From Blasia pusilla (Eukaryota), in contig CM114271.1 of the NCBI GenBank assembly GCA_050084515.1, positions 38,006,001 to 38,070,000 on the forward strand: a stretch of DNA of 64,000 nt, read 5' to 3'. Positions 6,728 to 50,665 of this stretch are shown here, one piece after another (the stretch's first letter is position 1; the number at the start of each line of letters is the position of its first letter). The notes below the pieces were generated by a model, which saw nothing but the letters and a program-made list of their open reading frames with translations, ran no database searches and was not told the DNA's origin. The position numbers were made by a program, and so were the translations under genes.

Positions 6728-6744
6728 TATAAATACCTGGTATC

Positions 6745-11660: not shown

Positions 11661-11798
11661 GAGCTCTTCTTGTAGACTCCGGTTCCGCACTCGCCCAGCC
11701 ATTTTTTCTGTGGTTCAATCCTAACTTCAGTTGTCGTTTGAGTCTCCTTGGCTCGTGGAGTCTCGGCTGTGCTTGAGCTACACTCTCTGAGCCTCTAC

Positions 11799-13395: not shown

Positions 13396-13536
13396 TATAT
13401 ATATATATATATATATGTCCCAAACTAGTGGACAAAAACGGACAAAATTTTGAGAGAAGGTTTTAGGGGGAGGAATGTTTTTGGAATTTGTGTTGAAGCA
13501 TGATTAATTTCATGCACGGCACAGGATGTACGCTAG
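13396..13536 (+). mobile_element. (TA)n microsatellite followed by a possible mini-Helitron 3' end
   Basis: (TA)10 at 13396-13416. A degenerate hairpin catgcacggcacagg is followed by CTAG|T at 13533-13537. Confidence 0.3.
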
Positions 13537-17138: not shown

Positions 17139-18501
17139 TGGCTTCTTTAGTGGGATCATGTGATGAGAAAGGCCACTAGGCTTTTGCTAGTGTTAATGTT
17201 TGGGGGGAGATGTAAATGAGGTTGTTTCTAGTATTTTTGAAATTTTAATCTATTTTAGGGGTTTCTCTCACTCACCCAATGATTCTCCCTTTTCTTTATT
17301 TCTCCCTTTATGTTTGTCAAGGGTTCCCATCTTTATTCACGAAGCAAAAGCCACGAGACCTTTCATGCACTTCCTCACAAAAGCACGAAACATTGCTATT
17401 TCATGATATCCGACTTTAATGCCAGTTGGTTCTGAATCCGAGTCCATGGAAGCTAATCTTGGGTCTTCGACTCGTACGACCCACTGTTAGCCACATGAGT
17501 TGATTACCGGGCTTCTCGGCATAACGTAGGCCATGATCAAAATTGCTTAATGATCACCACAGGAACCCCCACCACGACTGACTCTGATGGCGACTAAACT
17601 GAAGTGGAGAGTACTGTTGCCCTATAGCAACCGATTCTCCACCCCAAGAATCGGCCAAAGGATATAAGCGGGGGATGTGAATTCATCCGAAGGCAGATGC
17701 ATCCGCCGCATCGGCAAGACGGGAGTGTACAGGAAATTTTTTTTGATGAGTAGATCGACTCTTTTCAATGCTTGCTAGAGTATGCACCGACCGGTATGTG
17801 TTCGAACGATCATGAAAAGAGTACAGATCCTGTGGAAACTGTCCTCCGCCTGAACTAGATTTTCGTCCCCGCCCTAAACTCGTTGTCTGGATCTCTGAGC
17901 TTTACAACAGGAGTTGGCAGTAGGTGAAATAGCAGCGATTAGATTAGATTAGGTCGTGAGCTTCGAGGGATCTCTCTTAAACCCAACTTCGTCTTTAGTC
18001 GCAACTCTGAATTTAGATGCTAATTAAAACCTCGAAATCAGATATTACCTGTGGATGTGCTGTTCGAAGCAGGTTTACATCGACAATTCTGGTGCTGAGG
18101 ATCGGATACGTAGATCTATCTGGTGACAGGACGTACTGGGCTCATCTACCCTGGGGGCAGCAGGAAGAATCAAGGGCATGACGATTGTCCAGTAGCTCTG
18201 TACACGATCGATGAGTGATCAGCTCGAGTAGCAATCGGGGAGGTACATCGCCACACACTAGTTTTGTAGGCAGTCGTGATGGAGCGCTTCGGTGGTTGAC
18301 TCATTTTATGGGGACGGAGCAGTCATGGTCGAGTCCCACCACCGTGTGCTAACCAAGTCGAGATTTTCGGAGCAGAAGGTGAAATCAGAGGTTGAAGGGC
18401 AGTTTCTTAGTTCCATCGACAAAGATACGACTCGTGAATTGTCCCATCCTCAATCTTTAATTTTTCCGCACAACTTCAGAAATATTGTAAAGCAGACCGG
18501 G

Positions 18502-20037: not shown

Positions 20038-20886
20038 GGTGGTGATCCGGAATCGTTGAGTTCAATTTGCCCAAGAGCAGAAATTGTCCTCACCTCGAGG
20101 CCCAGATCTCATTCACCTCCTGGCCTCATCAGCATTCGCAGACTTCCATTGCTACCATTTCTTGTTCTCGAGCATTCAAAAGTGGAAGGCATATGAGCTC
20201 CTTCGCTCTGAAACTATGACACTACCTGGATGGAGAGCCTTCCTATGGAAATCCCAAGGTTCAGGAATTCTCACAAGAGACTACTTGGCAAGGCACGAGT
20301 TTTCAACGCTGCCCACTGACGCCTTGGAAGAGCTTCGGACATTTGACCTTGGTAAATCGGTTGATATACAGGCAATTTCCAGTCAGTTGGGCGTAGGTCT
20401 GTGGGCTCATGGTTTAAAAGTTCCTAGTGTCAGCTGTGCTAGCCATGGCTTTTAGCTAGACTTAATGTGCACGGTACACACTAGATGCATCATTGGCTTC
20501 AAGGATCTGTCCGCACACTAGCGGATCTGCACACCGGTCCCAAATGTATTTGTAATCTAATCTGAAGGTGATATCAGCCATATTTTGGGTGGTAGCAGTG
20601 ATCTTTTCCTGGAATAATTTACTAAATCTTGCGGGAAACATGTATTTGAATCTCTAGCTCATGCCTATGATATTTTTCTCGCACATACATGCTCCTCCCA
20701 AATTGAAAGTCTCTTAGCAGTCCATATACCGATGTAACCTAAATCAAGCAAAATCGAAACAATGGACTTTTTTTAGGCCTCTAGTTTTACCGATCGTTCT
20801 GCTGTGCTCTCTTGGACCTGTATTTCCTCTTAGAACTCATTGGATGATTCGTTTCTCATGCACCATCGAACGGGGATGTCGTGCCA

Positions 20887-21201
20887 CTTTCTCCATCCGG
20901 ACTAGTTCATCCACACTCAGAGGCTGTCAATGTTCGACATCTACGGGCCAAAAGAATGAACCGGCACGGTTTTATCGCCGGCAGGCGAGAGTTCACAATT
21001 AAGTAGAACTAGCAAGAATACCCATGAGATGTGACGGGTAAAAATGCTGCGCTACTTTCTGCATCCGGACTCATTCATCGCATTCAGGGACTGTCAAAGT
21101 TCGATATCTGCGGTCCACAAGAACCGGCACTTTCTTCAAAGCCGGCAGGCAAAATTTCAGAATTTAGATTAGCTAGAACTAGTAGGAATGCCCGTGGGTT
21201 G
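20887..21201. repeat. Diverged ~165-bp tandem duplication
   Basis: actttct.catccggact...gaaccggcac...gccggcaggc...tagaactag appears at about 20887 and again at about 21054. Confidence 0.7.
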
Positions 21202-22626
21202 CACATGCCCGGCCCACGTAAATTACTCCGCACTTGGCGTTCCGATCGTTCATCGTCCATCTTCCTACTCCTCTGAAAGTACTCCGGGGTTATAACTTCA
21301 AATCCCTTTTTTCGAATTGGGATGAGAAGGAAAGACTCCCAGATCATCTGATTCATACTTTACAGTTCTAGAAGTAAGCACGGGAAAATACATGTTCGAG
21401 CAAGAAAGCAACTTCAGATGCAATTTGGTGGGGCAACTTGCACCTCGACAACGAATGCGAAAAGCGATTCTATAAACGAAACTGAAGTTTCTGGCTTAGC
21501 GCCTCGGGTTTTCATATTCGTTGTTAAATCAGGAGAAAAGGGATTCGAATAAACCCTAACAGGTGCCGGCGATTGGCTCTGGATCTTCAGCTAACATACT
21601 GGTCCTCCCTTGATTGCAGCTAAGTTTGTGTTCCGGTGAAACTTGTAAGTAGAAAAACTAATGATGAACGTAATAAGATCATAGATAACATGTGCAATGA
21701 GCATTTAGATAAAGGGACAAGATGGGCATCTGATTGGAGTGAATGTAAGGAAAATTCAAGGTATATTGATTTAATGCAGATACTTTGAAATAAGTGAAAC
21801 ATGGTATGAGTGAAGCGATCATGCAAGAATCACACAATGGAGCGTGAAAAGTTATGCTCATATGGTTTTGCCTAATCTATAATACCAGCGTGCAACTCTA
21901 ACTTTGGATTACTATACACTACGAAAGTAGTTTCCTTAACTAAAGCTTTGAGGTATGATGTAAAATTGGTTAAATTGAATTGTGGAAAGCCTATACTAAG
22001 CCTATATAAGCTAGCTAAGTGAATGGAAACGTCGAATATATTCAATCGCTGGCATCGACTTGAATAAGGAATGGAAGAAATTGGGATGTTAGTACGTCAC
22101 CATGGTAAGATCAATGCTCAATTGTAAATGTATTGTATCAGTAGTGAAGAATAAGCATGTATCTTAATATAACCTCTAAGCGTATCTCCTCTTGCCTAGG
22201 GAACTTGCAAACACATTTGGCTAAAATCTAACAACAAGAACAAAAATCACTTCAAAGTCAAAGTCTAGTAGGATTGGTACAATATGGGGTTCATCCGAGG
22301 AAGACGTGTGGAACTTTGGGAGCTGTGGACAAGATTCATCTTTGAGGCTTTAGTAGATGTGAGGTCTATGATTATGTGGAGTGGAAGGTGGAACTCATGA
22401 GAAGAGTGACGAATTATAATCCTAAGAGGCTATCAAGGACCAGCCTCCGCTAGAGGCTATGCCGAAAAGTTTGTTCCCTCAGGTATGAGTGAGGGTTTTC
22501 TATTTGAAGTCAACTTGCTTGTAGCGAAGGGCCTCCTTCTATCTACTTGACAAAAATAACAAGGAGTTATGAATCTAAATGTTCACTATGAGTAAACAAC
22601 ATACCACATCCATTGTGTCATGCATC

Positions 22627-23452
22627 CCAGAGAAGGGTATTCGGGTGTTGGATCTCTTTGGAGGGATTAGACTGGGTTAGCTGCTCTTTTGCAGGCAAGA
22701 GTACGCGTGCAGTGGTACCTGTATGTGGAGATTGATGATGTTGCGAGGCGCGCTTCACTTCACCATGTGGCGCAGTTATACCTCCATTTTACGGATTTGT
22801 TGTCTGCTTCCGCTGTCCAGGGATATTACTTTACCGAGGGATATTTCATTGTTGGGGGCGCAAGACTTGGAGCAGGTAGGGGCCATAAATTTGGTCATTT
22901 ATGGTTGGCCGTGTCAAGGCCAGTCGGGTGCTGGACGGGGTAGTGGATTAGGTGACTGGCAGTCCAGGTTGTTTTGGGAGATGATGCGGATCTTGATTTA
23001 CAAAGAGAGAATCCTATTGACTGTGGTCAATAGGAGTGGCATGCCACGGGCAACCTTTCCCACATTTGTGAGTTTTCCGGCTTCCTATGCATTCAAGGAG
23101 GCCGGACGTGGCTTGGTTTGGGATGACCAGGTACAGAGGTTGGTGGAGCCTAACGCCGATGAGCGAGAGCAAGCGATGGGATTCCCCATAGGAGTGACGA
23201 CAGTACCTTCACTATCAGAGGCATCACGATATCATATCTGGGGTCAGGCGATAGATCCGAACTGCTTGACATGGATTTTGAGCTTCAGAGTATTTGAGTA
23301 GCGTCGTTTGCGGATGCGACAGATCACAACTACTGCGTCGGTGAGCCCCATGCCTACCAACACGGTTGAGGCAGTGGCTGGGGCTGAGACCTGAGGAGAT
23401 TGACATACCATGGATGATTGGAAGAGACACCCTTGGACTTCTTGGGATGTTT
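22627..23452 (+). pseudogene. Degenerate C5 cytosine DNA methyltransferase domain, probably TE-borne
   Basis: Motif I IRVLDLFGGI/TGL, motif II YVEID, motif IV GWPCQG, motif IX EREQAMGFP and motif X GQAID. Two frameshifts (~22670, ~22825). The ENV/RxR segment is missing (deletion near 23000). Stop at 23299. No introns seen. Confidence 0.8.
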
Positions 23453-24007
23453 TGCAGATACGCTAGTGTGAGAAAACTGAAAGTGATGAAATCACTCAAA
23501 TCTTTACAAAAGCTTAGAGATACAAAGTGTCCTAGTCCGTCCATGCGCTCATAGAAGAGCTTTGATGGGACCTAAACATGGAGATAACTTGACATACGAG
23601 AATGCGCTACCACTCCGAATCCCGACTATTTCATTACTCGAGATACTAGGGTTTTTTTATCTTTTTTTCTTTGTTTCTACTAAAACCACCTACGTCATAT
23701 TACTATGACTCCTTCGACGTCTAAGTCGGAACCATCAATCTAGGCTTCTCCTCATACAAGGGGGCCGATCAGATTAATGGTGCTTAGAGAAGTGGATGTT
23801 GAGAATCCAACAGCCAAGAGATGATAGCCACAACATCAAGTGTAGTTCCGGGTACTGCACATGGAGATCAAATTTTGCAGTGGCTGCAGGAGAGCGATCG
23901 AGTTCTATTGTCCGAGATGGGGTTGCACCATAGCAACCACCTACACCCGCGTCGGAGAGTCCTACTGTAGTCACGATGGAGACTTGGGAGCCAGACATAG
24001 GCCCTAA

Positions 24008-24660
24008 CACTAGAAGAAATCCCCGGTTTTATGACTAGGTTATATGACTCATATGAGTCATACCTTACATATCACGACTAACAATGACTGACGACTACTT
24101 TAGACACAAAAGCCAAGTCATATTTGTTTGGCGACTAGGCTAACTAGGATGGTCATCTTAGATGGAGGTTGGTATATGACTCGAGGGTGTAGTCATGAGG
24201 TCATGACTGACATGTCACTCAGATGACATGGAACAATAACACATCATCAGTGACATGGACTATTTAGTGTGATGTGTCACTGATGACATGGACTATTGCT
24301 GTGTCATGTCATTGATAATGTGGACTTGAGTACGATTCATCTAGTCATATGTGTATATTTTTCCAGTTACCACCAACGACTCCTTTAGTCATGGTTGGTG
24401 TGCGAAAGTTCAGAATATCCTATCAAAATGCACCAAGTGTACTCCATTTAATTATAGTTGGAAACTTATGTAGTCATTTTATTTTATTGAAATGTTGGTA
24501 TGGACTCATGTATTATGACTAGAAGAGTAGACTTACATGACTACTATAAAAGCGGACATAACTGGTTTAGTCATGAAGATATGACTGTGAGTAGCGAAAA
24601 TTATGTAGTCATTGAACATAACTGCATGAGTCATACAATAATGACTAGAGAGAACTTGAA
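24008..24660 (-). mobile_element. CACTA terminal inverted repeat and subterminal repeats (3' end of a minus-strand element)
   Basis: CACTAGAAGAAAT at 24008, followed by dense ATGACT/AGTCAT motifs in both orientations. The partner TIR was not found. Confidence 0.75.
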
Positions 24661-25289
24661 GCTTACTACTTCAGTTTTTGAACCGTATTGTGCTAGTTAC
24701 ATTGATATAACTAGTGGGAATATAAACTTTGGATATTTTGGAATGTTTATTATGCCTTTTGAACGGCACAAGAATTAATGGATCTGAATTATTGAAATCC
24801 TCTTTTCCATTTATATGGTGAACACTTAAGCGTTCACCTTAGCACATAGTAGAATTTTGAAAAAAACGCACATAACTAAAACAACATCATATATCCAGAG
24901 ACATGTCAACTCAACTATATGGAAGTAGCACATGAGCACTATGTTGTTACATTGAGTAGTGCCATCTTGATGTAATCAAGAAACTACGTGAATTTTCTCT
25001 GAGTTTAGAAAGAGATGTAATAAGAATGTCTTGCTACAAATGAAACATACACAAGCAATTAACCAAGCAAATAATGAAAACATACCCTTGAAAATAGATT
25101 TTGAGGGATGGAATGTCACTAAAGAGTAGCTTCTATACACCAAATTACAAAATTAATCACTATTACCATGGGGTTATAATCCAAATAGATAAAAAAATGA
25201 AGATCAAATATAATAGGGTTTATGATCTCATCTTGAAAGAGCAAGATAGATCATGTCATCCATGAAAATAAAGTTAGTGCACCTTAGAT

Positions 25290-27550
25290 AGTTGGGTGCC
25301 AAAAGAAAAGAGTACTCTACTGAATCACCTTTCTCATATGCATCTCTCGCCAGAGCATGCTTGAGCCAAGAGCATCACCAAATGTTTCTTGTGCAGATTC
25401 GCCTATCAAATTCGGCATCCACAAAGCATGTTCTGATTCGAACACCTCGTTTTAGATCAACCCTCACCATGCCTAAGGGGATATCTTTGGCATGGAACTT
25501 GTCTCTTCCACCAAAACCTGATATAACTCCTGACTCAAGCACCATCCTACTCAACTTTGGCTTGGTGAATAATACATGATCATCAATTCGTAGCTAAAAA
25601 AATACACAAAATTTAGTTAGTAGCAATTCAAATTCTTCCCACATGCATTTGCACCATTAACTTGAAAATAAAAAACTGCTATGATATACCTGTTTGAAAG
25701 ACCATCCCCATTTTGGAAGATGTTGCGAAAAGTTCACAAGTCCTAGATGACCATTTGACTATCCACAACAAGAAATATCATTGTCATCATATAAACCTTG
25801 AATAGAAGAGGCCATTATAGATGAGAGAAATTACCTTAGTTCTTTTCTTAGACAAGCCTGATCTGATTTCACTTTCTTGCTCATTCAAACCATCACATTG
25901 TAGGCTAGACTTCTGTCTTTTGGCTAGTGATGATTTGGCTTGGCTGTCCATACTCAGGTTTTCTGCACATTATGCACGCCAAAGTTTATTGAATGTTGTA
26001 GGAAGAAATAACTATTGTTTTGTGGATAGGTTGAAAACTATGCCAGAGACAAATTCATTATACCAAGGATGACATACTTACAAGTGATTCGAGTATCATC
26101 ATCTGCACTTTCAGTGGAACTTCTCCTTTTGTTGCTATGTTCTGGCACTTCTACAAACAACCCAAGTATTGAGAAATGAATTGTAAAACCAGATTCTTCA
26201 CTTCAACAAGTAATTATATTAGAAGATCCTACATCTAGTGAAGCTAAACTCACTCCTTACCACCAGATTGTGTAGTTGCCATTGCCTCTTTTTGTGTGGA
26301 GATCTTCCTCTTCCCTAATTGTCCGGCTTCAGACGTTGGTATAGGCTCAACAATGACTGTAAGTTACTCAAAACAAAGAAAGTCAGTTCTGAAATACTCA
26401 TGCTGGAAAGGACAAGTAGTTATAACCATTGAAAATCGAGGGCGGAAGAATGAGAATAGGCTATCTGATGTGAGCTTCTCATCCCTTGTTGCATATGGTT
26501 GAGAATTGGATGGCGGGGAACTAGAAATCTGGTGTGGTATTGAAGACACATCCTTTGAAGTAAGCTTGGACACCATTTCCATGAGTATACTTAATGCTTT
26601 GTTTTGCCGTTTCATCTGCAACTTCACATCATCCAAATCTACGCTCCACTTCTTTTCCACGTCTTCCAATTGAATAGTGACTCTGGATTCCACACTCTGC
26701 ATATATAATCCAACGATCAATTAGCTACAAAAAAACAATGGTTTTGCAATTATACATCCAGATACAACCATGATAATGACTCCATAATTCAACCTGATTA
26801 AGGATATGATACTAACTCCATGACCCAATGAGATGAAGGTCATGATACTAGCCATGTCAAGCCAACGAGTAAGAAAAGAGTTATGCATTTACATTTACCG
26901 ATGAACTCAATTGTGTGAAACCTAGTTGTTTAGGCAATGCGTCTCTCTCCATAGATTCTAGCCCTATGCCCAAGGACTCTTTTGAGGTACGTTGTTGCAC
27001 CTATACATGCTCCTTAAATGCATAGATTATTAATTTCATGCATGTGAAAGGGTTCAATGCAAATATGGAAATGAAATAGTAATGGGGGTTTTCTACCATT
27101 ATGTAACTTTAGCAAGAAAAGTAGGGAATGCCAAGATGACTTACATCAAGTCCATCTAAACCTACACGGCATAAATTCCGTATCATATCATATCATATCA
27201 TATCATATCATTTTTAATAACTTCCAAAACAGAGACTTAAGAATTGAGTACCCACATGAACATAGGTCTGGAAAGTACCACATTTTCATCACTCTATAAT
27301 TGAGGTCGTCGCGTGCAAGAATACAACAACCTATTCAATATAAATTTGCAAACTCGGAACCAAGTGAGAAGTTACATGTAGATGCACCTACTTGTGGGGT
27401 CAAATTTTCTGATGGGCTTGGTGTTGCGCAAGATTGAGACCTACTACGGTATAATTGGTTGTCTGTATTCCCCCTGGCCAATGGAGGTGCCAACGCTGTT
27501 GGGGGCGGCGGTTGGGATGGCCCATGTCCCTTGTGTCCACAAAAGAAATA
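25290..27550 (-). pseudogene. Probable multi-exon TnpA-like accessory gene of the CACTA element
   Basis: Short minus-strand coding-like segments with splice-like junctions (e.g. coiled coil SVESRVTIQLEDVEKKWSVDLDDVKLQMK) lying between the transposase and the TIR. Confidence 0.35.
27181..27211. repeat. (TATCA)6 microsatellite
   Basis: Read directly. Confidence 0.9.
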
Positions 27551-27620
27551 CAATTAGCTAGTTAGACTTCCAAGTAATTGAATTCCCCTATGTAAAACAA
27601 GAAAGGGTAGAATAGTTTGC

Positions 27621-30600
27621 CTACTTACCCACGAGGATGGGATGGTCATGGATGATTGAGCTCCATTGGTCCATGGATGGGAAAACAAATGGCTGGTGAT
27701 CTAATGGCTCGCATGACCTCAAGTTGGCAAACAGAAAACCCTCCTTATCCAATTTCATGGATCCTACTCTCGAATCCCAATCTGCTTTAACCCACCGCCC
27801 TCGCATTAGTATTATGGGTTGTTCTACAATCCCATAATCAAGTAAGAGAATATCAACCAACACCCCAACATACGAGTATGAACAATTCTGGTTGGAACTT
27901 TTTTCATCAACAAATACTGCACCTATTCCACTATCATAAGTGGAGAAGGGCATCGCACCACTTGGCCCTTCTACCCTGTAGTGGTTTCCGTAGGCTTTCA
28001 TACTCTTGAATGAAAATGCCCTACTATTAGGAGGTATAGCTAATGATAGTAGGTGAGCATCAGGATCTTTTGAGTTGTCAATTGCATCTTGTGTAATGGC
28101 AGGGCGAATCCACTTTTCAAAAGGAATATCTCTCGAACATGACTGATATTTCGTGTTCAATAACAACGTTAATGGGATTAGTACATTATTTTGTATTTAA
28201 TGTGTCAATACCAAAATAATATACACTTTGAGAGTCCAAATCGTTGTTAACATAACTATGACCTTGAAAAGCATATATTGGAGAGTTTTACCTTTGCCAA
28301 TCAACCATGACCTCTATATTATGCAACACATAATGATGTGCTAAGTTGATCATTTCTCGCGAAAGTCGAACTGGAGTGGCTGCACCTTCTAGCTCCTCAC
28401 CAACGACCCCCTCTTCCTCCCCATCATCACCTTTTCATATACTCTGTCACAAACCCTAATGCCTCGTTCTTCATATACCCTTCTGCCATACACATGAAGA
28501 AATATGTACGGCCTAGCTTTAGACCGTACATATTTCTTCATGTACCCCAATATACCGCTCCATTGGATACATCCACCGACATGCTACTAGCCCACACATG
28601 TCCAATTCTTCTACGACATGGATCAACAAATGTGTCATCACGTTGAAGAAAGATGGAGGGAAATGCATTTCAAAGAGACAAAGGGTTATGGCAGTCTCTT
28701 CAGGGATTTTGTTGAATAAAGCTGGATCATATACCTTTGTACACACCACTCTAAAAATTCCGGATAATCTAATAACCACCATTCTCACATGGTCCTTCAG
28801 AAGACCACGGATGCAATAAGGAAGGACTTGTTGAATGAAGACATGGTAATCATGTGATTTCATATTGCCCAATTTTCGATTAACCACATGCTTGGAGAGT
28901 TATCCACATAATCCAGATGGCACCTTCAAGTTCTGAATCCTCAAAAGGAAAGTATTCAAGTCATGGGGAGATAGACAATAATCGGAAACTGGTTTAAGCA
29001 AAACTTGGGGTCTACTAGGATGGGGTTGCAACCACAAATGAGATTGAATCCCAGGGGCCTCCAAATCTCTCCTTACTTTCACAGTATCTTTCATGAAAAA
29101 ATAAAGTCTTCACTAGATTCTCAACGATATTCTTCTCAACATGCATTACATCTAACGTATGACGTATAAGCAAATTCTGATTGTATCGTCAAGGAACCAT
29201 GGACATGTCACGACTTGAACATAATAGCTAATATCCACAATCAAATCAAACAAAAGCTATCGTCCTCTATAACCACTATTTCATAACATAAATAATAGAT
29301 AATATAGAGAGGAATCAGGATACTGGCCAGTAAGGCAACGAATAAAGTATACTCAGCCTTTTCATCCTAGTTCTCTTGTAGGGATCAGTGGGGCCGTCTT
29401 CTCGGCCCCCACTCTGATCATATGTATGTTTTTCATTTGCCCATCCAATAATCTCTCCAGAAAGTAGTCTAGGCACGCGTGGTCTGAGTTCAACACTCCT
29501 GTTGAAATGAGATCCAAACCTACGGGTCCTCCATGGATGGCTCAATGGGAGATATCGACAATGACAACCATATATGGGCTTGCCACAAGACTTTGAAAAA
29601 TCAGAATCCACTCGAGGCCCGCATATAGTACATCCCAGTTTCCACCGTGGCTCTGCCCTACGACAGTTCCGTATGCCGGGTAATCATTTATTGTCAATAG
29701 TAAGATAGCCCTAAACATGAATTTCCAACTTCCGCCTACCTTCCGAACGTCATGAAATTCAACCCCTTTCCACATTTCGTGGAACTCTTCTACTAGAGGA
29801 AGCAAGTGTGTGTCTATGTTTTTCCCATTTACACTCTCCTTTCCTCGTATGATCAAAGAGAGCATCAAAAAGAATTTGTTTTTCTAGAGCCAGGGAGGCA
29901 AGTTATAATTAACAAGGAGCACAGGCCATATTGAACAAAAACTCGACTTGTCTGAAAATGGATTCCCTCCGTCCAAAGCTAGCCCAAACGTGCAATTCCT
30001 CTTCTCCTCGGAAAAGTCTGGATATAAGTTGTCCATGTGGCGCCATGCCTTGCAATCAGCTGTATGCCTTACTAAGCCATCCTTGCTCTGGTTCAAGGGG
30101 AACCAAGTCAACAATTCATACAACGTCTTGCATCTAAATATACGTCTCATCCGAGGTATAACAGGAAAATGAATTAGTACCTTTCATGGTACCAAGTCTA
30201 CCCACTTTCCGTAACCTTGGTTTCCCACATAATGGACAGATCTCAGCTTCAGCCAAATCACCCCGGAATAAAACACATCCAGCCGGACACGCATGGATAC
30301 TGTTGTAACCCAAGCCTAGTTTACCAATGAGTTTTTTGCTACATAATAACTCGGTGGCACCAATTTCCCTGTTGGTAGGACCAACTTAGAAAGGAGTTTC
30401 AAACATTCGTCAATAGCTACATTTGGGATGCCATGGGTGGTTTGAATGTTGAATAGTAACATGACAAAAGCCAAAACAGATGTTTTTGCTGTAGGGAACA
30501 AGGGTTTGCAAGCTTCAGCAAGCTCCTCATATTCAGCTCCATGATTGAATAGTGGTTCTTCGTTTGATATTCCCGGTTCTGGTAATTCATCAGATGGGAG

Positions 30601-31010
30601 AGATGTCTCTTCAATTTCATCCTTGTGTATATGGTCGTATTTCTGGAAAATATCATTGAGCATTTTATGAACGTCAATGTGCTCGTCTATAACTGCCATG
30701 GAAAATCTCTCCCTTCCATCCACATGGAAGGTGGGGGCTGACTCCATTGTCTTATCCTCTTGGCTTCTTTTTTCAGCAAGATCATGCATAAGCCACTCCT
30801 CATCTAAAGAGTCCCAACCATCCCTAGATTTCGGCTCTCGAAAAAGCGCCGAGCATCCATTTTTTCTCAAATGTGCTTCCACCTTGCCGATGGACAACGT
30901 AGATCCACCCTTACAGTCATTGCACGGACACCGCAATCTTTTATAGCCTAGTACACTAGCTCGTATGCTTTCCCGCTGCCAAAACTTGGAATCATGTGCC
31001 TTTACTCTAA
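27621..31010 (-). mobile_element. CACTA/En-Spm transposase (TnpD-like), degenerate, with introns
   Basis: RCPCNDC..VEAHL transposase-associated domain, GLALDGGNPF..SIWPVLLVNYNLPPW, TINDYPAYG, RHTLDVMHVEKNI, MKSHDYHVF..FPPSFFNVMTHLLIH..WMYPMER (DUF4218-like) and a DUF4216-like C-terminus. Confidence 0.9.
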
Positions 31011-32309
31011 CTAGGTGGTTCAAATCCATTCTAAGGGGTTTGGAAGTCATTTCCGGCGTAATGTGAACTGAAACATTCCAAACACATCCAAAACCATGAC
31101 ATCTTGCCTCAATAAAAAATTCCATAAACCACGGCTGGACGAGCTATCATCTTAGATGAATGCATACCCACGTGAAGTCAAGACAAGTATGATAAGGCAC
31201 ATATACCTAACCTGGGACTTATCTTGATGGAGATTTCAATTGTCACTAACAATCCTCGCTGATGTGGTCCAACGCTTCCAAGGACATTCCTGAATGAAAA
31301 ATGTAACACACCCAACTTTAGATAATGGCTCAATCCTTTGATATGTACACTTCATCATGGCCATGGTCTAATAAATATTTCCAGCGAAGATCTAGAAAAG
31401 CAAACTACAAAGCTAATTTGCTATGAGTGACCATAGTAACTGTAGCAACTTTCTGACAAAGAAAGAGTTATAGTGCGTGGCAAGCAAGGAAGTGCTCCGC
31501 CAAGAAAAAAAGTACAGTAAAGTGCAAAATTAAGGACATAAACTACGATAGAAGAGGATGTAGAAGTTCCCAAAATGTAAGTCAGCCACGTTGAGCCATC
31601 TACTTCCTCCTTACCAAGGTCATCCTTATCGACTGGAATGCGGTATGCTGAAACTCACATTCAGGAATCTACTTGCTCCTTACCAAGGTCTTCCTTGCCG
31701 TCTGAAATAAGTTTTACTATAACTCACTTGACTGCCGTCACCACCTCTGACGTTCCTATCTTAGAGTCACGTAATGATTGGATCCATGTTTTGCCCTTAG
31801 CAAAACGTACCACAATCGGTTGCACACTTCTAGTTACAAGCAGGTATAATTATTTGAGCAATCACACATTCAAGACATCCATATTCATCCTGGTGGAGAC
31901 ATTTTACAAGAAGTTGTACAAATCTGCATTTTGGAAACGTACCAAGTCCAGAGCTATACGATGGGTGTCTATATGAAGGCAAAGGCTAGGTCAGGTCAGG
32001 CCCGTTCAGTCGGACACCAATTTCCCCAAGTCAGATTTTTAAACATATAGAACATTTGCTCAAAGGTTTAATGTGCCAACTCTTACTTAACGGTTGTACT
32101 TTCCCAAAGTGTTTCCGAGTCCAATTTTTATGGTTTGAAGTATCAAACCTGGAAAGTTTTCAAAATCACAATTTGGCAATTGGCAATATTTCAATAGAGA
32201 CAATAAACCATGAAAAAAAAATTCCTTGGAATTCCATAACTTTTATTCCATCTCTCTAACGAAGTGCATTCCACTGTACCAATACAAACCCTACTATACC
32301 GAGACATCA

Positions 32310-33175
32310 CAGCCATGAAGGACAAGATGGGAGGAGAAGCTGGGCTGTATAGCGCCTGAAGCACTTGCTGTCTGGTTAATTTTCAGTCGCCATGGAGCCA
32401 AGTACAGGTTCATATTTCTTAACACACAAGATTACGGAGAGGCACGATCCACGTTATTTCAGTTGCCCTTTCAGCTCTTAGGCGCATCAATTTAGAACCT
32501 GAACAGGTTCTTTCCGACCAGTCTATATAGCATCCAACTTAACAGCCATGAAGGACAAGATGGGAGGAGAAGCAAGGCTGTATTGCGCCTGAAGCACTTG
32601 CTTTCTTGTTAATTTCAGCGGCCATGGAGCCAAATACACGTTCTCAAACTTAATGAATCAACAACGTTCTTAGTTCACCAAAGTGAGCATGTGAATGTAG
32701 CCACCTTTTTTGCCCCGCGTTATCTAACCACACTCCCGACCAAGAGAGAGCGAGAGAGAGAGAGAGAAGTTAAAATTAGATTTGTGATTAGATTTGCGAA
32801 GTTCAAATCTAATCACAACTACCAAGAGTCAATCCGAGGTACTCTACACGCACAAAGATGAACAACACTTAAGTCCGTGAAGACGCTGAAGGGATGTTCA
32901 TACAACTTCGAGAGCAATTAATCAACGGCTTCCAGAGCGATGACGGCATACAACTTCCAGAGCGACTAATCGAGAACCTGGAGAGTAGAGAGGGGGAGAA
33001 AGTGGGCTTATAGATTTGATGGTGCTCGGACCAAAGAAACTTATCGAACCACAGAGGGGGAGAGGGGGGCTTACACATTTAATGGCGCTAGACCAAAGAG
33101 ACTTATCAGACCACAAAGAGGGAGAGGGGGATTTACGTGTATGATGGCGCTCAGACCAAAGAGACTTACACATTT
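32310..33175. repeat. ~105-bp direct repeat pair and three ~57-bp units, probably the CACTA 5' region
   Basis: acagccatgaaggacaagatgggaggagaagc... at about 32310 and 32542. gatgg.gct..gaccaaaga.actta occurs three times at 33018-33170. Confidence 0.7.
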
Positions 33176-33414
33176 CGAGAGAGAGAGAGAGAGTGGGGGA
33201 AGTCTTACAAATTTGAAGTGTTGTGTAAAAATAGTTCACTAGCTCCAAATGCTCACCACAGTAGAGTGACAACAATGTGCCTTGGTGAACTCTTTTGTGT
33301 TTCAACACACTCTTTTGTGTTTCAAATGCTTGAACGCACATTCTCACCAAAGGGCTGCGGACCACATCGTCCTAGAGTGATAATTTTTCCCAACTTATCC
33401 CCAAGCCTAGGGAT

Positions 33415-36400
33415 CTCCATTGAGTTCTTGATACAAGTGAAAATGCCACGCCCATCTTCAACGCCCTCGACCCTCTTGGCGTCGCTTTTTTGTACCCTCC
33501 ACCCTCCTCATGGGGTATAGTGACATGGAGAGGGCTTTGATTCAGAGTAGGAGCCAAGACTTGGTTGGAGTAGGACTAGTGGAGATGTTGCATGGAGAAT
33601 ATGCATTTTCCATTGTCATGCCCACCAAGAAGAATGTGCATGGCATCGTGACGGATAGGCGGATGTGTGGAGATTATATATCCCAACAACATTAAAAATA
33701 CGACCTATCAATCATTTAGAAGATGAACTAGTCTTTACTAAAGGGTATTGATAGATATGCCATGCCCACTCTTGAGGAGATCTTTGATGTCATAAAAACC
33801 AGGACAATTCTTCAGGTGTGGAGGAGGCGATTGGGATGCAAAGGTCTTGATTCATTGGATTCATTGAGTTCTTGAGTGACACGCCCATACCATGACATGG
33901 AGAGGGCTTTGATTTAGGAGCCAAGACTTGCCAATCTGATTGGAGGATATGCATTTTCCATTGTCATGCCCACCAAGAAGATAGCATTTTGGGGCATCAA
34001 TCCTCACGAGAAGGATTGTTTGTACTAGTGGCGATTCTTACCATTCGGGTTAAAGATCGTCCCGACTAAGTTTTAGAGGGTCATGGATAGGATCTTGGCA
34101 GGTCTGGATTTTGCTAGGTGTTATATTGATGACATCGTAGTCTTTAGCGCCACGGTTGAGGAGCATGAGCGATATCTAGAGGATATGTTTCGACCATTAC
34201 AGTTACATGGGTTGGAGCCACATCCAGGAAAGTGCAAGTTCTTCTATGACTAGATTGAGTACTTGGGTCATACGATATACCCATGTGGCCTTGGTGTACA
34301 AAAGATAGAGCTAGAGGCTATTTCACGTATTCCATGCTCTAGAGATGTGATTCGAGTTCGTGCATTCATGGGATTGGCAAACTTCTATCGACGGTACGTC
34401 AAGGGTTTTAGTTCGATTGCAAAGCCACTAACCTTGCTGACCAAGGTGGATCAGAAGTGGCACTGGGAGGATGAGCAAGAGAGAACATTTCAGCTGCTCA
34501 AGGACAGATTGACGTCCGTGCCCATATTGAGGAGATTGATCAGGGGGAGTCCTTTCTAGTTGCATACCAATTGGAGCATGTTGGGGCTTGGAGCCATGCT
34601 CATCCAACATGACGATGATGGTAGAGAGTTCGCGGTGGCTTACGCTAGTCGCTCGAACAACGCTGCAGAGGCAAAGTATAACTTGTATGAGGGTGAGTGC
34701 TTGGCTATGATGTGGGTTTTTGTACATTTCAGGTGTTATTTATTCGGAAACCATCATTACTGATCATCAACCACTTAAGTGGTTGATGGAGTCTGACAAG
34801 CTTACAAGGAAGCTTGCGAGGTGGGCCCTTTTGTTGTAGGAGTATGACTTCCTGGTGGTGCATAGACCATGGACGCTCAACCAAGATACTGATGGTTTGA
34901 GCCATAACCTATGCTTGAGTCAGCGAGATGCGACTGGAGCTTGTTGGCATGGTGAGAGCGATGAGGAGTTGGTGCCAAGATGGCGCGCGTTAGGATATTT
35001 GGGCTTGTTGGCTGTGGAGAGCCTGATTGTTGAGACTTCAATGGCGAGGTCTGATGAAGAGTCCTTAGATCCAGAGTCCGGTGAGGAGACAATAGATGGC
35101 CGAGACATTCACAATGATGGAGTGGTTTGCAGTACCTGTATACTAGAAGCATCGCGAGCACATTGGGTGCTACAGAGCGGGATCGGATCCTACAGCAAGC
35201 CAGACAGTTCTGGTGGGAGGGGACACATGTGTTGCGAGTTTGGGGGGCTGGTAGAGTGCGTGTAGTGCCTCATCCTTTGTAGAGAGCACGTGTAGTGCAT
35301 CATGCCCACAAGGAGTTGGGTCATTTTGGAGTGAAACGGACGTACAACTTGCTTCAGCTACAATATTGGTGGCAAGACATGTAGACTATTTTTCAACATT
35401 TTGTTGCGAGATACATGTTGTGTGATCGAGTCCAAGCATCATTCAATGCTCCGACTCCACAGTTGTATCCACTTCCAATCATGGATTTAGGTTAAAGATG
35501 GAGTTTGGATTTTGCAGGACCTTTGCCTTTAACGAAGCGCCATAGTCGTTATGTGTTGGGGATGGTCGAGCACTTCTTGAAGTGGATAGAGTTGGTTGCA
35601 TTTCTTGACAAAGCGAGTGAGGGAGTAGCATATACCTTCCTAGATCGAGTGTTAAGTCATTACGGCGCACCAGCTGAGGTGTTGACAGACTAGGGTACAG
35701 AGTTTTGTGGGGAGTTTCAGGCTTTGTGTGATCAGGTGCTGATTGACCACCGCACCACTTCGCAAGATCATCCTGAGGTGGATGGATTAGCGAAGAGGGT
35801 TATGTTGACGGTGCAGAGAAGATTATGCAAGCATGGCTTGCAAAGAGATCATCTTGGAGATTGGGACCTCCAGTTGCTGTGGTTGGCGATCGGATACAGA
35901 TTCAGCAGATAAGCATCCTTAGTGTCTTTCTCAGCATACTTGCTATTTTATGGTCGAGAGCCAGATTTACCTGCGGCCATTCATCAAGATGTTGGTGAGG
36001 TGTTGAACCTTGATGACCTTGATGTATGGATGCGAGCATGTTCTCTGACGGCTGAGTTATTTCGGAGAGTGATGCCCATGGCGTTTGAGAACTTGGCCAT
36101 TGCGTAGCATCTAGATACATTGAGGTATGCGACTATTTGAGGAGGTGGTTATCAACCTACTATTTGGAGGTTTCATTAGGGAGACTATGTATACTTGCAG
36201 CAAATGGCACCCACGACGTTGGATGCAACTCGAGGACGCACCATCTTAAGAGTGCGTGAGATTTTGCCATCTGGTGTTCTCTTATTCGAGGGACGGGATG
36301 GTATGGTTTGGAAGGACCATGTGCGTAACTATGCGTCATGTCACCTTCCTAACATTGACAGTATAGTTGATCCGAGCTTAGCAGTAGTTCTTGCAAGCTT

Positions 36401-36545
36401 GTGATGTATGTTGTGTGGTTCCGCTCGTGGTGTAGCCACTATGGTCGTCTGTGATGGATGTTTGAGAGGATGGCATATGGCAGGTCTGACGCCACCTCTC
36501 ACCAGGGTTCCTCATAGACGATGGATGTGTCCCAAATGTACATAG
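33415..36545 (+). mobile_element. Ty3/Gypsy pol (RT-RNaseH-integrase-PHD), degenerate
   Basis: RRMCGDY, LPFGLK, CYIDDIVV, RAFMGLANFYRRYV, VAYASRS..EGECLA, AHKELGHFG..C..C, DFAGPLP, TD*GTEF, and a C-terminal PHD (36405-36539). Confidence 0.92.
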
Positions 36546-36711
36546 AGTAGATAGTTCTAGACTCCAACTTGTGTCTGTGACATGGATGATAAGAAGGTGA
36601 CTAACGATGGGGCTACCTGAGCACCCGACCTTTTTGCTCTTAGCGTTCCAAAGATGTATGTCATGGTAAGTAGGGAAAGATGACTATTTGGAGTAAGAGG
36701 GACCTAACCAT

Positions 36712-37489
36712 GAGCTAGGGGGGTGATTGGAGATATTTTTTTACTTCTTGTCTCGTTGTTTGGATACCATGAGTTAGCATGGGATCGTACGTGTTTGTGT
36801 GTATGTTTGGCGAAAGCGATATATGTTGTGTAGCGATGTGTATGCGCATGACAGTTGTCACAAATTTTTAGGATAGATCAGAGAATTGGGTAGAGCGCCT
36901 TTGTGAGTAGAGAAGGATAGACTTAGGAGGTCGAGGATGACCTCCTAAGGTCTTGGGAAACTTGAGAGAACAGGTTTCCCCTTCGTTTCAGCTCATTTGG
37001 AGCCATATCGAGAAATTTATTTTTTTGGGTAAGTTTCCATATTTGGTAGAGTTTACTTTCCACTTTGGCAAGTGGTCCTTGACCCGCTATAGTAGGTCAA
37101 GAGCCAAGGAGGTGACCTGCAAGCATAGGTTACCAAGGAGAGAGCTTGGGAGAGGGAAGGGGGTATACCTCCAAGAGAGAGAGGTTGAGAGCTCATTCTT
37201 TCTTTGTTGAACCTCTTGGCATGAGGCGGCGGAGCTATGATCCCTTGCCTTGTGAGTGTAATCTAAGCCTCTCATTAGGAGACTGGGTTTGGTTTGATAT
37301 TGAGAGCGACATGTGAGGATGCACACATTTTAGAGCTATGGTATTGACAGAGATTGGATCTACTTTATTTAATTGGAGATATTTTGGTACTTCTTGTCTC
37401 GTTGTTTGGATACCATGAGTTAGCATGGGATCGTGTGTGTTTGTATTTATGTTTGGCGACAACGATGTATGTTGTGTAGCGATATATAT
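36712..37489 (+). mobile_element. PPT and atypical 3' terminal region (A-GT-TGTC-B-A') of Gypsy-PHD copy 1
   Basis: AGGGGGG PPT. Repeat A at 36726-36853 ends GACA, TGTCAC starts at 36856, and A' at 37372-37489 has lost its last ~10 nt. Confidence 0.8.
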
Positions 37490-38214
37490 ACCTCTTGGCA
37501 CCAACGTTGGACTCGTTTTGGTTCTCTCCCGCTCTCGATGACCCATCCCCACTAGAAATTTCCCTTGGATGACGAAGATAATAATATCTTAAAAAATATA
37601 AGGGAAAGAAATGTACGGGTTGAGATAAGAAAATACCGAAAATAGAATGACACGAGATGCTAAAACCATGGCTCTGAATGTGTCGGTGCGTGAATGATGG
37701 AAGTTTAGGGTTGGGCTCTCAAAGGGAATAGGTAGATATGGGCATGTTTAGACAAGATTCCTTGATCATCTCCACATCCCCGATGTGCTAAGGAGAACCA
37801 ATGAAACAAATCAAAACACTCGGGTCTATGAATAGAAAATTTCAAAATCACCAAACGAGTTTGGTGAAACAAGAAATTTCCACACTCACAAGCACTCACC
37901 TAATGTGGAGTCAATTAGAGTTAATTTAAGATGTAACAAGGACTGCAAATATCCAAGTTGGTCCCAAATAAAATCCAGGTACTCCCAAAAGGCACCCAAG
38001 GGATTTCTCCAGAATTCCTAGTAACCTTGAAAGACCTTACCTATGAAGGCACCATAAAAATTTGGACCCAAATCCAAAATATCACTAAAAAACTGGATAA
38101 ATAGGAGAAATACCTGATAATTAGGTAATTAACTCCTTAACCCCCCTCCATATGTACATTTTTGGGGCCTCTTGTGGGCCCTTCCCTTATGGGTTTTACC
38201 CAAAAGGGAGAAAA

Positions 38215-38254: not shown

Positions 38255-38593
38255 CCAAGTTCAAACTTGGCCCCAACCACTCAAAGGACACCACGTGTCC
38301 CCACAGAGCAGACACTTGGGTTGTACGCAAGCCCTAGAGCCTGCATGCGGGCTAGGCTAGAAGCGACGAATCAGAGAGCGCGACACGGCTCAATTTGTCT
38401 GCGATGCGGGCCCAATCAGAAAATAGGCGTCAGGCGTGATGCGCACTAGCCAAGAAAGGGCAGATTGGTCGACGTATGCGGGCCCAAGTGCGGGTCGCAG
38501 GCAACGCAGGGTGAAGGAGCCCGCACCCGGGCCCGCACGGATATTTGTCCGCGGACACAGACAAGTCCGCGTGCAACCTTGCTTCCAACAAAA

Positions 38594-41090
38594 GCCTTAG
38601 TTATGGCTTATCCCACTCAATATGCCAATCATGGGAGGCCTTCAATACAACAAATTTTTTTACGAAGTCCACTTTTGGGGCAAGTTGGTGAGTTTTCATG
38701 TGCGGCTCGAGCATTGGATCCTCTCTCTCCGGCGGTACCAAGTGTAGACATAGTGGCTCTCTTAGAAGCTCTTAATTCTCCTTTAATTGGTGATGCACCA
38801 CCTCTTTTGGAAGACTATACTACTCATCTTGACTTGGAGGTTTTCACAAGGGATTTTCTTCATACTCCTCGCTTATGAGCAAGCGGGCTATTAGGGATGG
38901 TTTTTGAGCATCTCCACGATTGCTTTATCCGGAAAGATTCAACAAGTGGCTTTGTCTCTCTATTTAGAAGGTGTGTATACATATTGCAGCATGTCGTCTC
39001 CCATGCTCTATCTCTAGGCTCTTAGGGTCTTGTCTTTTGTTGACTATGGATAAGTCTCCTTCAAGTGTCCGCCCTTTGGCTATTGGAAAGGTTTTATACC
39101 GCTTGGTTAGTCGATCCCTGTGCTTGCAATATTCTCTTCACTCTAGTGCCCACTTCTATCCTCATCAATTTGGAGTGGCAATCCCTGGTGGTTGTGAGAG
39201 TGTGGTGCATGGGATTGGCTCCAGCGTGGGTAGCAATTCAAGCCGATGTGGCTAACGCATTCAATTCAGTTTCTCGTGGGACCATCTTTGAAGAGTTATG
39301 TTGTGTATGAGGGTAACTTGCGAGTCTCATTCCATTTTTTTGCTCCTTCTAGGCCCATGATATGCCCATTATCTATTCCCATCATGCTTCTTCCGCAGAA
39401 TATAGTATTTATTCTCCCATCAGCTTGTGTCACGTGTCAAGGTGATCCCATGGGTGCCCACTATTTTCCATTGCCCATTTTTGTGCCTTTTGAGCATCAG
39501 CCCAAGCATTTCCATCTTGTTTTTTCCCTTCTATGGCTGATGACATGCACATTAGAGATCGTCCTTCTGAAGTGGTTCCTGCTTATACACATTTTGTGGA
39601 GCAATTCTATTTCTTCAACCTGAAAGTCCACCATAGTAAATGTCAGGTAAAGTCTCCTTCATGCCTTCCCTCAAGATTCACCCCACCTACTCTTGAAGGG
39701 GTCAAAGTTCTTACATCTGTTGGCCTCTTTTGACGCTTCTATCTTGGCAATTTTTGGTCAACTTCTTGGCCCAATACATTTGACAGAGAGGATGATGTCT
39801 TGGCTTCACCACAAGCTATCTTGATTATTTCTTTTGGAGGGGTGGGGCTTTCTTCCATAGCCGCATATGCTTCAACAACTTATTTGGGGAGTTGGCATTG
39901 GTGGCACCAATTATGGCTTCAAGGTTTCTCCAAGGAGATACACCTATCTTGATGGATCATGTCGCCCATGTAAAGGAGGGGGACTTGTTTTTTCAACAAC
40001 AATTGAGATCTACCGAAACTATTCTTCTTCTTGCTACACTAGAAATTCTATCCCCTTTCAATCAATTGATTATAGAAGGCCTTCATCAACTTCAAGAGCA
40101 TATCTCTGAGAATCTGCACCAAATAAACTTTTCCAGCATTCTCTCTTAGGCAACCTCTAACGCTCATAGAGCTCGTCTGTGTTAATGTGCGGGTACAAGA
40201 GCGGGGGCGGGGCTAACTACAAATCCTCTTATTCTTCCATTTAATTTTCCTCGAAATATATTCTCGACAGCTTTGCGGTTACGTCTTGGACTTCCCCATC
40301 CTTCTTTGCTAGGTATGCCAAATTGTATATGCGGAGATCCCATTGATGCAAAGGGTATCCATGTTCTCCCATATGCACATGCTAGAGAACAAATGACCAC
40401 ACATGATGTCATTAGAGATGTGGTAGGAGCGCTAGTTCATACACTATTGGGCAAGAGCAGCTCCATGTCCTACCTTCAACCACACAAGCAACCTGTCATT
40501 GGAGAGTTGATCTTGTTATGTCTCGAGGTGGATTCTAGCTAGACACTAGGTAATATGGTGGTTGCTGATCCAACACGTTCTAACTTGGTCTGTCAAGCCG
40601 CAGTACCAAAGGTTTGGCGGTGGAAGCAATAACAAGAATCAAGGAGTTAAGTTATGCTGTGAGGCATGCGACTGACAAATTTATTCCTTTTGAAATGGAA
40701 GTATTTGGTCATTTACATGTGTCTTTTGATATTTTCATGAATATATGTGCTCACCACTCCCTTGATAATCATCACCTTGCCCCTTCTCGTAGTCCTTCTC
40801 TCTCTGTAGTTACTATTTATTTTCAGCATGCATTTCAGTGGCCTTACAACACGCAAAAATCTCGGCATTGATACGTCATGCGGAGGTGGTGGGGAGTCGC
40901 TCTCCTTGTCGTTCGTTCACTAATGTTCTTTTCAGAGTTGTTTTAGGCTAAGAATCGTGTAGCTTGTTGAGTACGTGTTAGCTAGTTGCCCTTTTCTTTT
41001 TTCATTCCAAGATGAAATTTTTTACTCCTCTTTTGAAATGTTATTACCTTTCTTTGTCCTCCTTATAATAAAGTGGATATTATTTTCAAG
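38594..41090 (+). mobile_element. CRE-like non-LTR retrotransposon, 5'-truncated and degenerate, with C-terminal zinc knuckle/RLE region
   Basis: Collinear with 6885-8789. Continues with RLRLGLPHP..CICG..H..THDVIRD, RVDLV and VVADPT, then a T-rich 3' UTR with AATAAA. Confidence 0.85.
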
Positions 41091-50434: not shown

Positions 50435-50665
50435 CTGCACAGATTATTCATTTGGATGCCAATTGTTAGACCCGAAAATGGTTCAAAGGTAAACTCAACA
50501 GTAGATCGACCTTCGCAGCCTCAATAACTACTTCCTACTTTTCTTCTGATGAAGATGAAGATCAAGTATTACAGTCCGAATTTTGGCCTCCCCGACTGTT
50601 CACGGATTACCAAAGCCAACTTAATTTCTTGAGCTGCCATGGGCTGAAGTCCGGAGGGAAATGAC

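Follow-up and report, generated by a model that had tools for sequence, protein, structure and literature searches.

Retrotransposons that carry their own cytosine methyltransferase have been described from dinoflagellates and from one charophyte (de Mendoza et al. 2018, PMC5890265). The charophyte element, KnitGypsy-Dnmt3 of Klebsormidium nitens, is presented there as a Gypsy retrotransposon with an intronless, non-permuted DNMT3 and with DIRS-like terminal repeats in the order A-coding-B-A-B (legends of Figs 1e and 4c). Its authors put the DNMT 'into the Pol polyprotein ORF' (ORF, open reading frame), give the element for Klebsormidium only and describe its acquisition as one 'in the K. nitens lineage'. 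Passages of later papers use the wider phrase 'streptophytes (Gypsy-DNMT3)' (PMC12344493; bioRxiv 10.64898/2026.05.21.726589). In this study, we analysed a 64,000-nucleotide stretch of the genome of the liverwort Blasia pusilla (NCBI GenBank assembly GCA_050084515.1, contig CM114271.1, positions 38,006,001 to 38,070,000 of the forward strand; hereafter the window, numbered from its first letter), in which a decayed cytosine-5 methyltransferase (C5-MTase, or MTase) lies upstream of a Gypsy pol region that ends in a PHD finger. Both pieces belong to a family of Gypsy elements in bryophytes that joins a DNMT3-like MTase to a PHD-bearing integrase, and they are very probably parts of one and the same element.

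As far as the published description goes, the bryophyte family resembles KnitGypsy-Dnmt3 in being a Gypsy element with an intronless, non-permuted DNMT3 in its coding region and a streptophyte host. The MTase is collinear with pol and of the non-permuted DNMT3 type, and the A-coding-B-A-B plan is found both in a full-length relative (metagenome locus L074, see below) and at the 3' end of the window copy, the 5' repeat of which has been truncated away. Because the repeat plan and the DNMT3 type match the published description, we regard the family as a land-plant member of the KnitGypsy-Dnmt3 kind. The kind itself is already known; what is new here is the land-plant host range, a conserved stop codon inside the coding region, and the PHD finger. 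The host of KnitGypsy-Dnmt3 is a charophyte, whereas the hosts here are land plants, namely the liverwort of the window and, for the relatives, Marchantia, Calypogeia and Sphagnum. The main text of PMC5890265 does not mention a PHD finger or a stop codon separating MTase from RT (neither 'PHD' nor 'readthrough' occurs in it), whereas the bryophyte family has both, the two being compared by description. Among 20 relatives whose cluster names were looked up, the named ones came from Closterium or Cymbomonas, and none from Klebsormidium. An explicit land-plant record of a DNMT-carrying Gypsy element was not found in the main texts of the literature searched, which included PMC11982613, PMC12344493, PMC9033089, PMC10538959 and PMC6453930, and a literature search on the Marchantia gene identifiers returned 0 papers.

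The MTase remnant in the window is recognizable at several levels. The Pfam DNA_methylase profile PF00145 matched a stop-to-stop ORF at 22681-23301 on the plus strand (E 1.1e-6; 28.7 bits, cut-off 22), and the same ORF found relatives in the protein search with E-values down to 1.4e-53. All of the motifs from which an original prediction, made on the letters of the window alone, had read a decayed C5-MTase are present: LDLFGGI, which contains FGG, in the ORF at 22579-22680, YVEID in 22671-22943, and GWPCQG, EREQAMGFP and GQA in 22681-23301. Since these motifs are spread over three overlapping ORFs, the MTase frame shifts twice, near 22675 and near 22830. Similarity to the Marchantia proteins P0162 and P0165 begins at 22579-22618 (tblastn), and the TAG at 23299-23301 aligns with a glutamine of the relatives (AEQRRLR), in agreement with the change from CAG to TAG that had been suspected. 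No other Pfam domain was found in the six frames of 20401-25382, scanned with stops read as X, and the motif order in the window is not permuted; the MTase thus has neither the BAH, chromo, UBA and PWWP domains nor the DRM-type permutation that the prediction had said it lacked. An internal deletion of about 294 nt (about 98 codons) between 22995 and 23017, where 67 nt stand in place of the 361 in L005, had escaped that prediction. It removes motifs VI (ENV) and VIII (SRAHRPRLWW), so that the full catalytic set (I FxGxG, IV PCQ, VI ENV, VIII RxR, IX and X) is kept in the intact relatives but not in the window copy. With its stops, frameshifts and MTase deletion, the window copy is a dead, fossil element.

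The protein relatives of this MTase are found in the company of retrotransposon domains. Among 211 candidate proteins of similar length, a word-indexed search yielded 10 relatives, including sequences from Sphagnum troendelagicum and Calypogeia fissa, and a search of longer proteins yielded 12, seven of them from Marchantia polymorpha. In an exhaustive HMMER search, 685 proteins were matched at E ≤ 0.001 and 181 at ≤ 1e-10, many of them 1000-2700 residues long. The Pfam architectures, determined for a sample of these proteins, include CCHC-protease-DNMT-RT-RNaseH-IN in P0021 (RT, reverse transcriptase; IN, integrase), CCHC-DNMT-RT in P0019, CCHC-protease-DNMT in P0044 from Closterium sp. NIES-68, and, from Marchantia polymorpha, where named proteins have gag/CCHC-DNMT, DNMT-RT-RNaseH in P0165 and gag-DNMT in P0166; MTase relatives within Gypsy polyproteins occur in Marchantia, Sphagnum, Calypogeia and Closterium. 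When the proteins were compared with the window by tblastn, 45 of 170 matched both the window MTase and the window pol, P0165 being the best for both.

Metagenome contigs were scanned with an alignment of 15 relatives; of the 241 stretches matched, 106 encode a relative, and the best 80 of these are the loci L001-L080. Domain probes (tblastn) revealed a recurring order on one strand, (PR)-DNMT-RT-RH-IN-PHD, in which PR is the protease and RH is RNase H. Counting only the loci with room for the domain after the MTase (1300 nt for RT, 3300 nt for integrase and 4000 nt for PHD), 44 of 49 loci have an RT on that strand within 1.5 kb, 17 of 19 an integrase (the misses being L025 and L071), and 13 of 16 a PHD finger (L008, L025 and L071 being the misses). 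The five loci lacking RT comprise L018, L065 and L068, which have an internal deletion, L057, into which an inverted copy has inserted, and L072. In these three deletion loci RT and RNase H are gone, and hardly any sequence separates the MTase from the end of the integrase and the PHD finger; L018, L065 and L068 may be non-autonomous forms that retain both chromatin-related domains. The co-occurrence counts run counter to single-copy, intron-bearing host genes and to an MTase that never accompanies this pol, and together with the Marchantia proteins they bear out the central proposal of the original prediction, a Gypsy family of land plants that codes for a DNMT of its own as well as for a PHD finger.

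An alternative origin of the MTase, from a host gene (a plant DNMT3, for instance) that decayed or left a processed pseudogene beside an unrelated Gypsy element, would fit its DNMT3-like character and the lack of gag or protease upstream of it in the window. However, its nearest relatives all lie within Gypsy polyproteins or directly upstream of an RT, it has no companion domain, and behind it come the linker specific to the family, the in-frame stop that the family conserves and the beginning of ORF2. On the strength of the transposon-borne relatives and of this linker, stop and ORF2 start, we rejected a host DNMT3 pseudogene, which we consider very improbable, and conclude from the sequence comparisons that the MTase is transposon-borne and not a host gene.

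The plan of the family is clearest in L001, where both frames are open: ORF1 (976-5082, 1369 aa) is followed by a TAG and then, in the same frame, by ORF2 (5086-8226, 1047 aa). In ORF1, Pfam recognized DNA_methylase and a sub-threshold protease (22.4 bits, cut-off 24.3); ORF2 matched RVT_1, RNase H, the two integrase domains and PHD. The CCHC gag and the aspartic protease expected upstream of RT are absent from the window; zf-CCHC and Asp_protease are present in P0021, P0044 and L004. ORF1 of the family would accordingly comprise gag with its CCHC motif, an aspartic protease and a DNMT3-type C5-MTase up to a single in-frame stop, and ORF2 would comprise RT, RNase H, a DDE integrase and the PHD finger, the whole being set within terminal repeats of the A-coding-B-A-B type. 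Simple identical long terminal repeats (LTRs) at both ends were not encountered; the relatives have split repeats, as in L074, where a 342-nt repeat at 1676 precedes the coding region, which is followed by a 113-nt repeat at 10238, a second 342-nt copy at 10350 and a second 113-nt copy at 10693. The same 3' layout is shared by L035, L046, L074 and the window, in which a repeat of 118-128 nt stands twice (at 36726 and 37372), the first about 190 nt past the PHD finger.

The region between MTase and pol proved to be informative. The original prediction had let the MTase frame continue into a linker ending in HPWTSWDV. The motif does end at 23454, but the element does not stop there: it runs on to 24007, a stretch that the prediction had missed. 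The same linker, marked by HPWxxW, is common to P0005, P0007, P0008, P0160-P0162, P0164 and P0166, and seven database proteins (P0005, P0007, P0160-P0162, P0164 and P0166) terminate at the junction of the two ORFs, about 35 residues past HPWxxW. In the window the junction reads CCA TAG CAA CCA. The start of ORF2 beyond it was matched by a DNA profile of 42 loci (nhmmer, 23962-24018, E 0.0087) and by a protein profile of 14 ORF2 starts (hmmsearch), positions 5-27 of which align to the left piece. A search for the pattern stop-Q...TWEP, in which the glutamine was demanded and both CAA and CAG were allowed, found the junction in 47 of the 80 loci, of which 33 have TAG and 14 have TAA as the stop. 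All 47 pattern-matching loci continue with CAA, and the second codon is CCC in 43, CTA in two, CCA in one and CTC in one; L001 has TAG CAG TTA and L003 has TAG CAA TCA. A repeat of about 150 nt was also noted within the extra linker sequence of the window copy (23640-23800); it has an inverted copy near 60489-60640, 37 kb away, with about 83% identity over 96 nt, and a search of 23300-24100 found no tRNA-like part in it.

Gag-Pol of murine leukaemia virus is made by read-through of a UAG codon, and UAG CAR YYA is the read-through context of the tobamovirus type. From the conserved in-frame stop and these contexts, we infer that ORF2 would arise by occasional read-through of the stop. Since the MTase frame lies upstream of the stop and read-through would be only occasional, the MTase would be part of the abundant product, made together with Gag and protease and in excess over RT and integrase.

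Downstream, the Gypsy RT-RH-IN-PHD region that had been predicted on the same strand was recovered in full, every domain scoring above its Pfam cut-off in a plus-strand scan of 32501-37482 with stops read as X (RVT_1 at 33999-34277). The order RT, RNase H, DDE integrase, which defines Ty3/Gypsy elements, is found both here and in ORF2 of L001. Residue 67 of L001 ORF2 aligns at 33447 (tblastn), and the nhmmer match is firm from 33495 (33495-34023); numerous stops and frameshifts follow. The window PHD aligns with the PHD at the end of L001 ORF2 (40.6 bits in L001). Read by eye, and in the window copy only, it has H-M-A-G at the expected H-x-x-C of the Cys4-His-Cys3 pattern, so one ligand seems to be lost. 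A further partial copy of the family, at 56875-58424, stops at the same end point as the 37499 terminus.

The interval between the two pieces had been described as mostly a CACTA remnant, and CACTA transposase domains (Transposase_21, 1.1e-43, and DUF4218) were indeed found on the minus strand of 25383-32502 (Pfam). At 24008 the sequence CACTAGAAGAAAT is followed rightward, to about 24800, by dense ATGACT-type subterminal motifs, a combination that we take to be the end of a CACTA transposon. The left Gypsy piece ends at codon 22 of ORF2, directly at this terminal repeat, and the right piece restarts at about codon 66 (33447). Strand and order of the two are those expected of one element, with about 45 of roughly 2400 codons unaccounted for; each matches the metagenome loci at about 67-70% DNA identity, and both are nearest to the L004/L076 subgroup and farthest from L001/L003. 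Given the kept junction, the break at codon 22 at the CACTA repeat and the restart at codon 66, we interpret the pieces as very probably one 5'-truncated copy, and it is quite probable that 22579-24007 and 33447-37499 are the halves of a single dead Gypsy copy of the LTR type with the family plan described above.

The adjoining CACTA end at 24008 could also suggest that the MTase fragment had been captured by the CACTA transposon in the manner of Pack-type elements. However, the MTase lies outside the terminal repeat, on its flank side, as the subterminal motifs run rightward from 24008, and the Gypsy frame continues in that flank to the last base before the repeat. Gene capture is contradicted by this position of the terminal repeat and was rejected; we regard it as having a negligible probability.

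A more serious competitor to the single split copy holds that the MTase and RT-RH-IN-PHD fragments are two separate insertions of the same family, 9.4 kb apart, the first truncated at its 3' end and the second at its 5' end. Several observations speak for it and against continuity. Neither of two terminal-repeat searches found the right end of the CACTA transposon or, with it, a target-site duplication: no pair of CACTA/TAGTG termini agreeing at 15 or more of 25 positions was present across 23300-33600, and looking through the rest of the interval for the 24008 terminal repeat in reverse complement and for its subterminal motif gave no right end. Continuity therefore rests on collinearity and on the near-adjacent breakpoints, and not on an excision footprint. 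Between the pieces, roughly 45 codons of ORF2 have been lost or can no longer be recognized, and DNA alignment of 33150-33515 with the ORF2 starts of L004 and L006 was no better than with shuffled sequences. Two stretches that had looked by eye like ORF2 remnants, 24100-24200 and 33290-33420, were not supported by hmmsearch or by pairwise alignment against shuffles. The right piece contains an internal duplication (33516-33791 versus 33861-33981), and this duplication and the extra linker sequence of about 400 nt show that the region was rearranged more than once. Further family fragments at 53870-57004 and 56875-58424 show that the family inserted here repeatedly. In addition, gag, protease and a 5' repeat were not found in the window copy, gag or protease homology was not found upstream of 22579, and a repeat pair bracketing the element was not found within the window.

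On the other hand, two independent insertions would have had to leave breakpoints no more than about 45 codons apart in the right order and orientation, for which we roughly estimate a chance of about 1-2%; a transposon terminal repeat (24008) begins precisely where the left piece breaks off, and the two pieces are equally diverged and share the same subgroup affinity. We therefore consider two insertions unlikely. In the reading that we prefer, one copy split by a later insertion, the absence of gag and protease upstream and the expected place of the 5' repeat, which falls inside the MFS transporter ORF at 18280-20037, indicate a 5' truncation. In the full relatives (L006, L060 and L074) the 5' repeat stands about 4.1 kb before the MTase. 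The window copy would thus have lost about 4 kb at its 5' end, comprising repeat A, gag and protease, and a nested block of about 9.4 kb, beginning with the CACTA end, would have split it at codon 22 of ORF2.

The MTase itself appears to be DNMT3-like. A profile built from 11 domain sequences and searched against solved structures matched DNMT3A best (8.8e-17, 64.5 bits), followed by DNMT3B and DNMT3C (about 1e-15), tobacco DRM (2.4e-7), HaeIII (8.6e-7), HhaI (1.5e-5) and DNMT2 (about 1e-3); DNMT1 did not appear at E ≤ 0.01. Among the Foldseek matches in the PDB to an AlphaFold2 model of the L004 domain, the top-listed were all DNMT3A, 3B or 3C, with E-values down to 8.6e-14 and TM scores of 0.5-0.6. 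The aligned family members have the motif order I, IV, VI, VIII, IX, X, with PCQ, ENV and the other motif residues invariant in 15 and in 11 aligned members. By this profile and fold comparison, the enzyme is best described as DNMT3-like and not DRM-permuted. The animal enzymes DNMT3A, 3B and 3C, its best matches in sequence and fold, share its motif order and the motif VIII pattern SxAHRxR..W. In contrast to them, the bryophyte MTase has neither a PWWP nor an ADD domain and is embedded in a Gag-protease polyprotein; its motif X is GQA, unlike that of the animal DNMT3s, and the target-recognition region is poorly predicted in the L004 model.

Among the loci with open frames, the ratio of non-synonymous to synonymous substitution (dN/dS) is about 0.17 for the MTase, compared with 0.09 for RT-RH and 0.10 for the integrase. 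Some facts temper this evidence. The MTase ratio is rough because dS is about 1.7, near saturation, with nine pairs usable and six saturated; the MTase frame is open in only six of the 80 loci; and the L004 model is mediocre (mean pLDDT 62.5, pTM 0.60). The only published test of the kind, in which the KnitGypsy-Dnmt3 domain was expressed in yeast, yielded no methylation and is called inconclusive in the main text (PMC5890265).

It is noteworthy that the same kind of MTase occurs at two places in the polyproteins, as PR-DNMT-RT-RH-IN in 21 sequences and as RT-RH-DNMT-IN-PHD in 37. They come from the protein set P0011-P0179 and the metagenome loci L001-L006. A FastTree tree was built from 96 near-full MTase domains, 38 of which, from sequences with the MTase alone, were left untyped; one split in it (support 0.92) separates all 21 PR-DNMT-RT sequences from all 37 RH-DNMT-IN sequences. 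This split by position points either to two captures or to a relocation of the domain within the polyprotein. One member of the RH-DNMT-IN group, P0081, is from Cymbomonas.

What the element might gain from these domains can be framed by comparison. Chromoviruses are Gypsy elements with a chromodomain at the C-terminus of the integrase, and the bryophyte family likewise carries a chromatin reader at the C-terminal end of a Gypsy integrase; the reader is a chromodomain in the former, whereas the latter combines a PHD finger with a DNA methyltransferase. By analogy with the chromodomains of chromoviruses, the integrase PHD may read histone H3 tails and bias the choice of landing sites, and the MTase may methylate the cDNA of the element or its new insertions de novo. 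We consider self-methylation, PHD-guided integration and stop read-through to be reasonable proposals. PHD fingers and chromodomains in retrotransposons are called widespread in a passage of PMC6673714. The EpiLTRs of Cymbomonas and Euglena are also LTR elements that join a C5-MTase to a chromatin reader; as described in bioRxiv 10.64898/2026.05.21.726589, however, they have an additional adenine MTase, a chromodomain in place of PHD, and a DNMT placed next to DNMT4 rather than DNMT3, and that text treats their DNMT acquisition as distinct from that of the streptophyte Gypsy-DNMT3.

The present results add two features that bear on mechanism: the integrase carries a PHD finger, and a conserved stop assigns the MTase to the Gag-protease product. 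A wider scenario may be offered tentatively, as possible rather than probable: the family would be an old Gypsy lineage spread through the streptophytes from Zygnematophyceae to bryophytes and active in some hosts, with its DNMT3 lying in the Gag-protease frame ahead of a leaky stop, made in Gag-like excess and acting on cDNA or insertions, and with its PHD finger picking the chromatin. In Marchantia polymorpha many copies are annotated as 'hypothetical proteins' or 'DNA (cytosine-5-)-methyltransferase', and counts of bryophyte 'DNMT3' genes can therefore include transposon copies. The question of what use the enzyme is to the element can now be taken to a land plant that offers good genetics and good methylome data. 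Should the copies in Marchantia prove to be active, a genetic model plant would be available for work on a de novo methyltransferase made by a transposon.

Table 1. Features of the Gypsy copy, the block within it and the further family fragments in the window.
Feature	Positions	Strand	Basis
DNMT3-type C5-MTase remnant, end of ORF1	22579-23301	+	Pfam PF00145, ORFs, tblastn
Linker after MTase, with stops, ending HPWTSWDV	23302-23454	+	nhmmer 23053-23454, E 1.8e-46
Extra sequence within linker, about 400 nt (about 18 nt in relatives)	23455-23870	.	
Linker tail (..AVAAGERSSSIVRDGVAP), TAG 23931-23933, first 22 codons of ORF2 (QPPTPASESPTVVTMETWEPDIGP)	23871-24007	+	
Nested block apparently splitting the element, about 9.4 kb	24008-33446	.	
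CACTA terminal repeat CACTAGAAGAAAT	24008-24020		
CACTA transposase remnants	about 27600-31150	-	
62-nt tandem repeat	32989-33168		
ORF2 from about codon 66 (TPIF) through RT (YIDD)	33447-34277	+	tblastn, nhmmer, Pfam
RNase H (RT_RNaseH_2, RT_RNaseH), frameshift near 34750	34464-34845	+	Pfam
Integrase: Integrase_H2C2 (PF17921) 35280-35438, rve (PF00665) 35493-35771	35280-35771	+	Pfam
PHD finger, C-terminal end of integrase/ORF2	36405-36539	+	PF00628, 31.6 bits (cut-off 24)
3' split direct repeats: 36726-36853, intervening 36854-37371, 37372-37499; element end	36726-37499	+	
Second, partial pol copy of the family (from the RT part to IN), without MTase	53870-57004	-	
Third copy, 3'-terminal fragment (IN end, PHD, terminal repeats)	56875-58424	+	

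The surroundings of the element are rich in other repeats. The only apparently intact gene near it is the MFS transporter ORF mentioned above (plus strand, 585 codons stop-to-stop, intronless), which shares 70% identity with Marchantia polymorpha and M. paleacea proteins, 66-67% with those of Riccia and 53% with those of Calypogeia; these values suggest a liverwort host, probably related to the complex-thalloid group. A repeat of about 1 kb occurs at 9285-10245 and 54416-55369 (91-100% identical); its second copy breaks the minus-strand Gypsy pol fragment and is, because of this interruption, regarded as a recent insertion. Copies of an element labelled non-LTR (LINE-type) by ORF reading lie at 6851-8701 and 38450-40176 on the plus strand and at 63167-63729 on the minus strand (81-89% identical); the first contains a long RT-like ORF (6851-7903), and the second starts about 950 nt past the 3' end of the Gypsy copy. 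Two inverted copies at 11742-13453 (plus) and 45356-46960 (minus) are 74-81% identical and have long ORFs that look by eye like hAT-type transposases. Finally, long inverted repeat arms at 41391-42766 and 49139-50990, 79-86% identical and about 6-9 kb apart, may mark the two ends of a large DNA transposon or may be two copies in inverted orientation.

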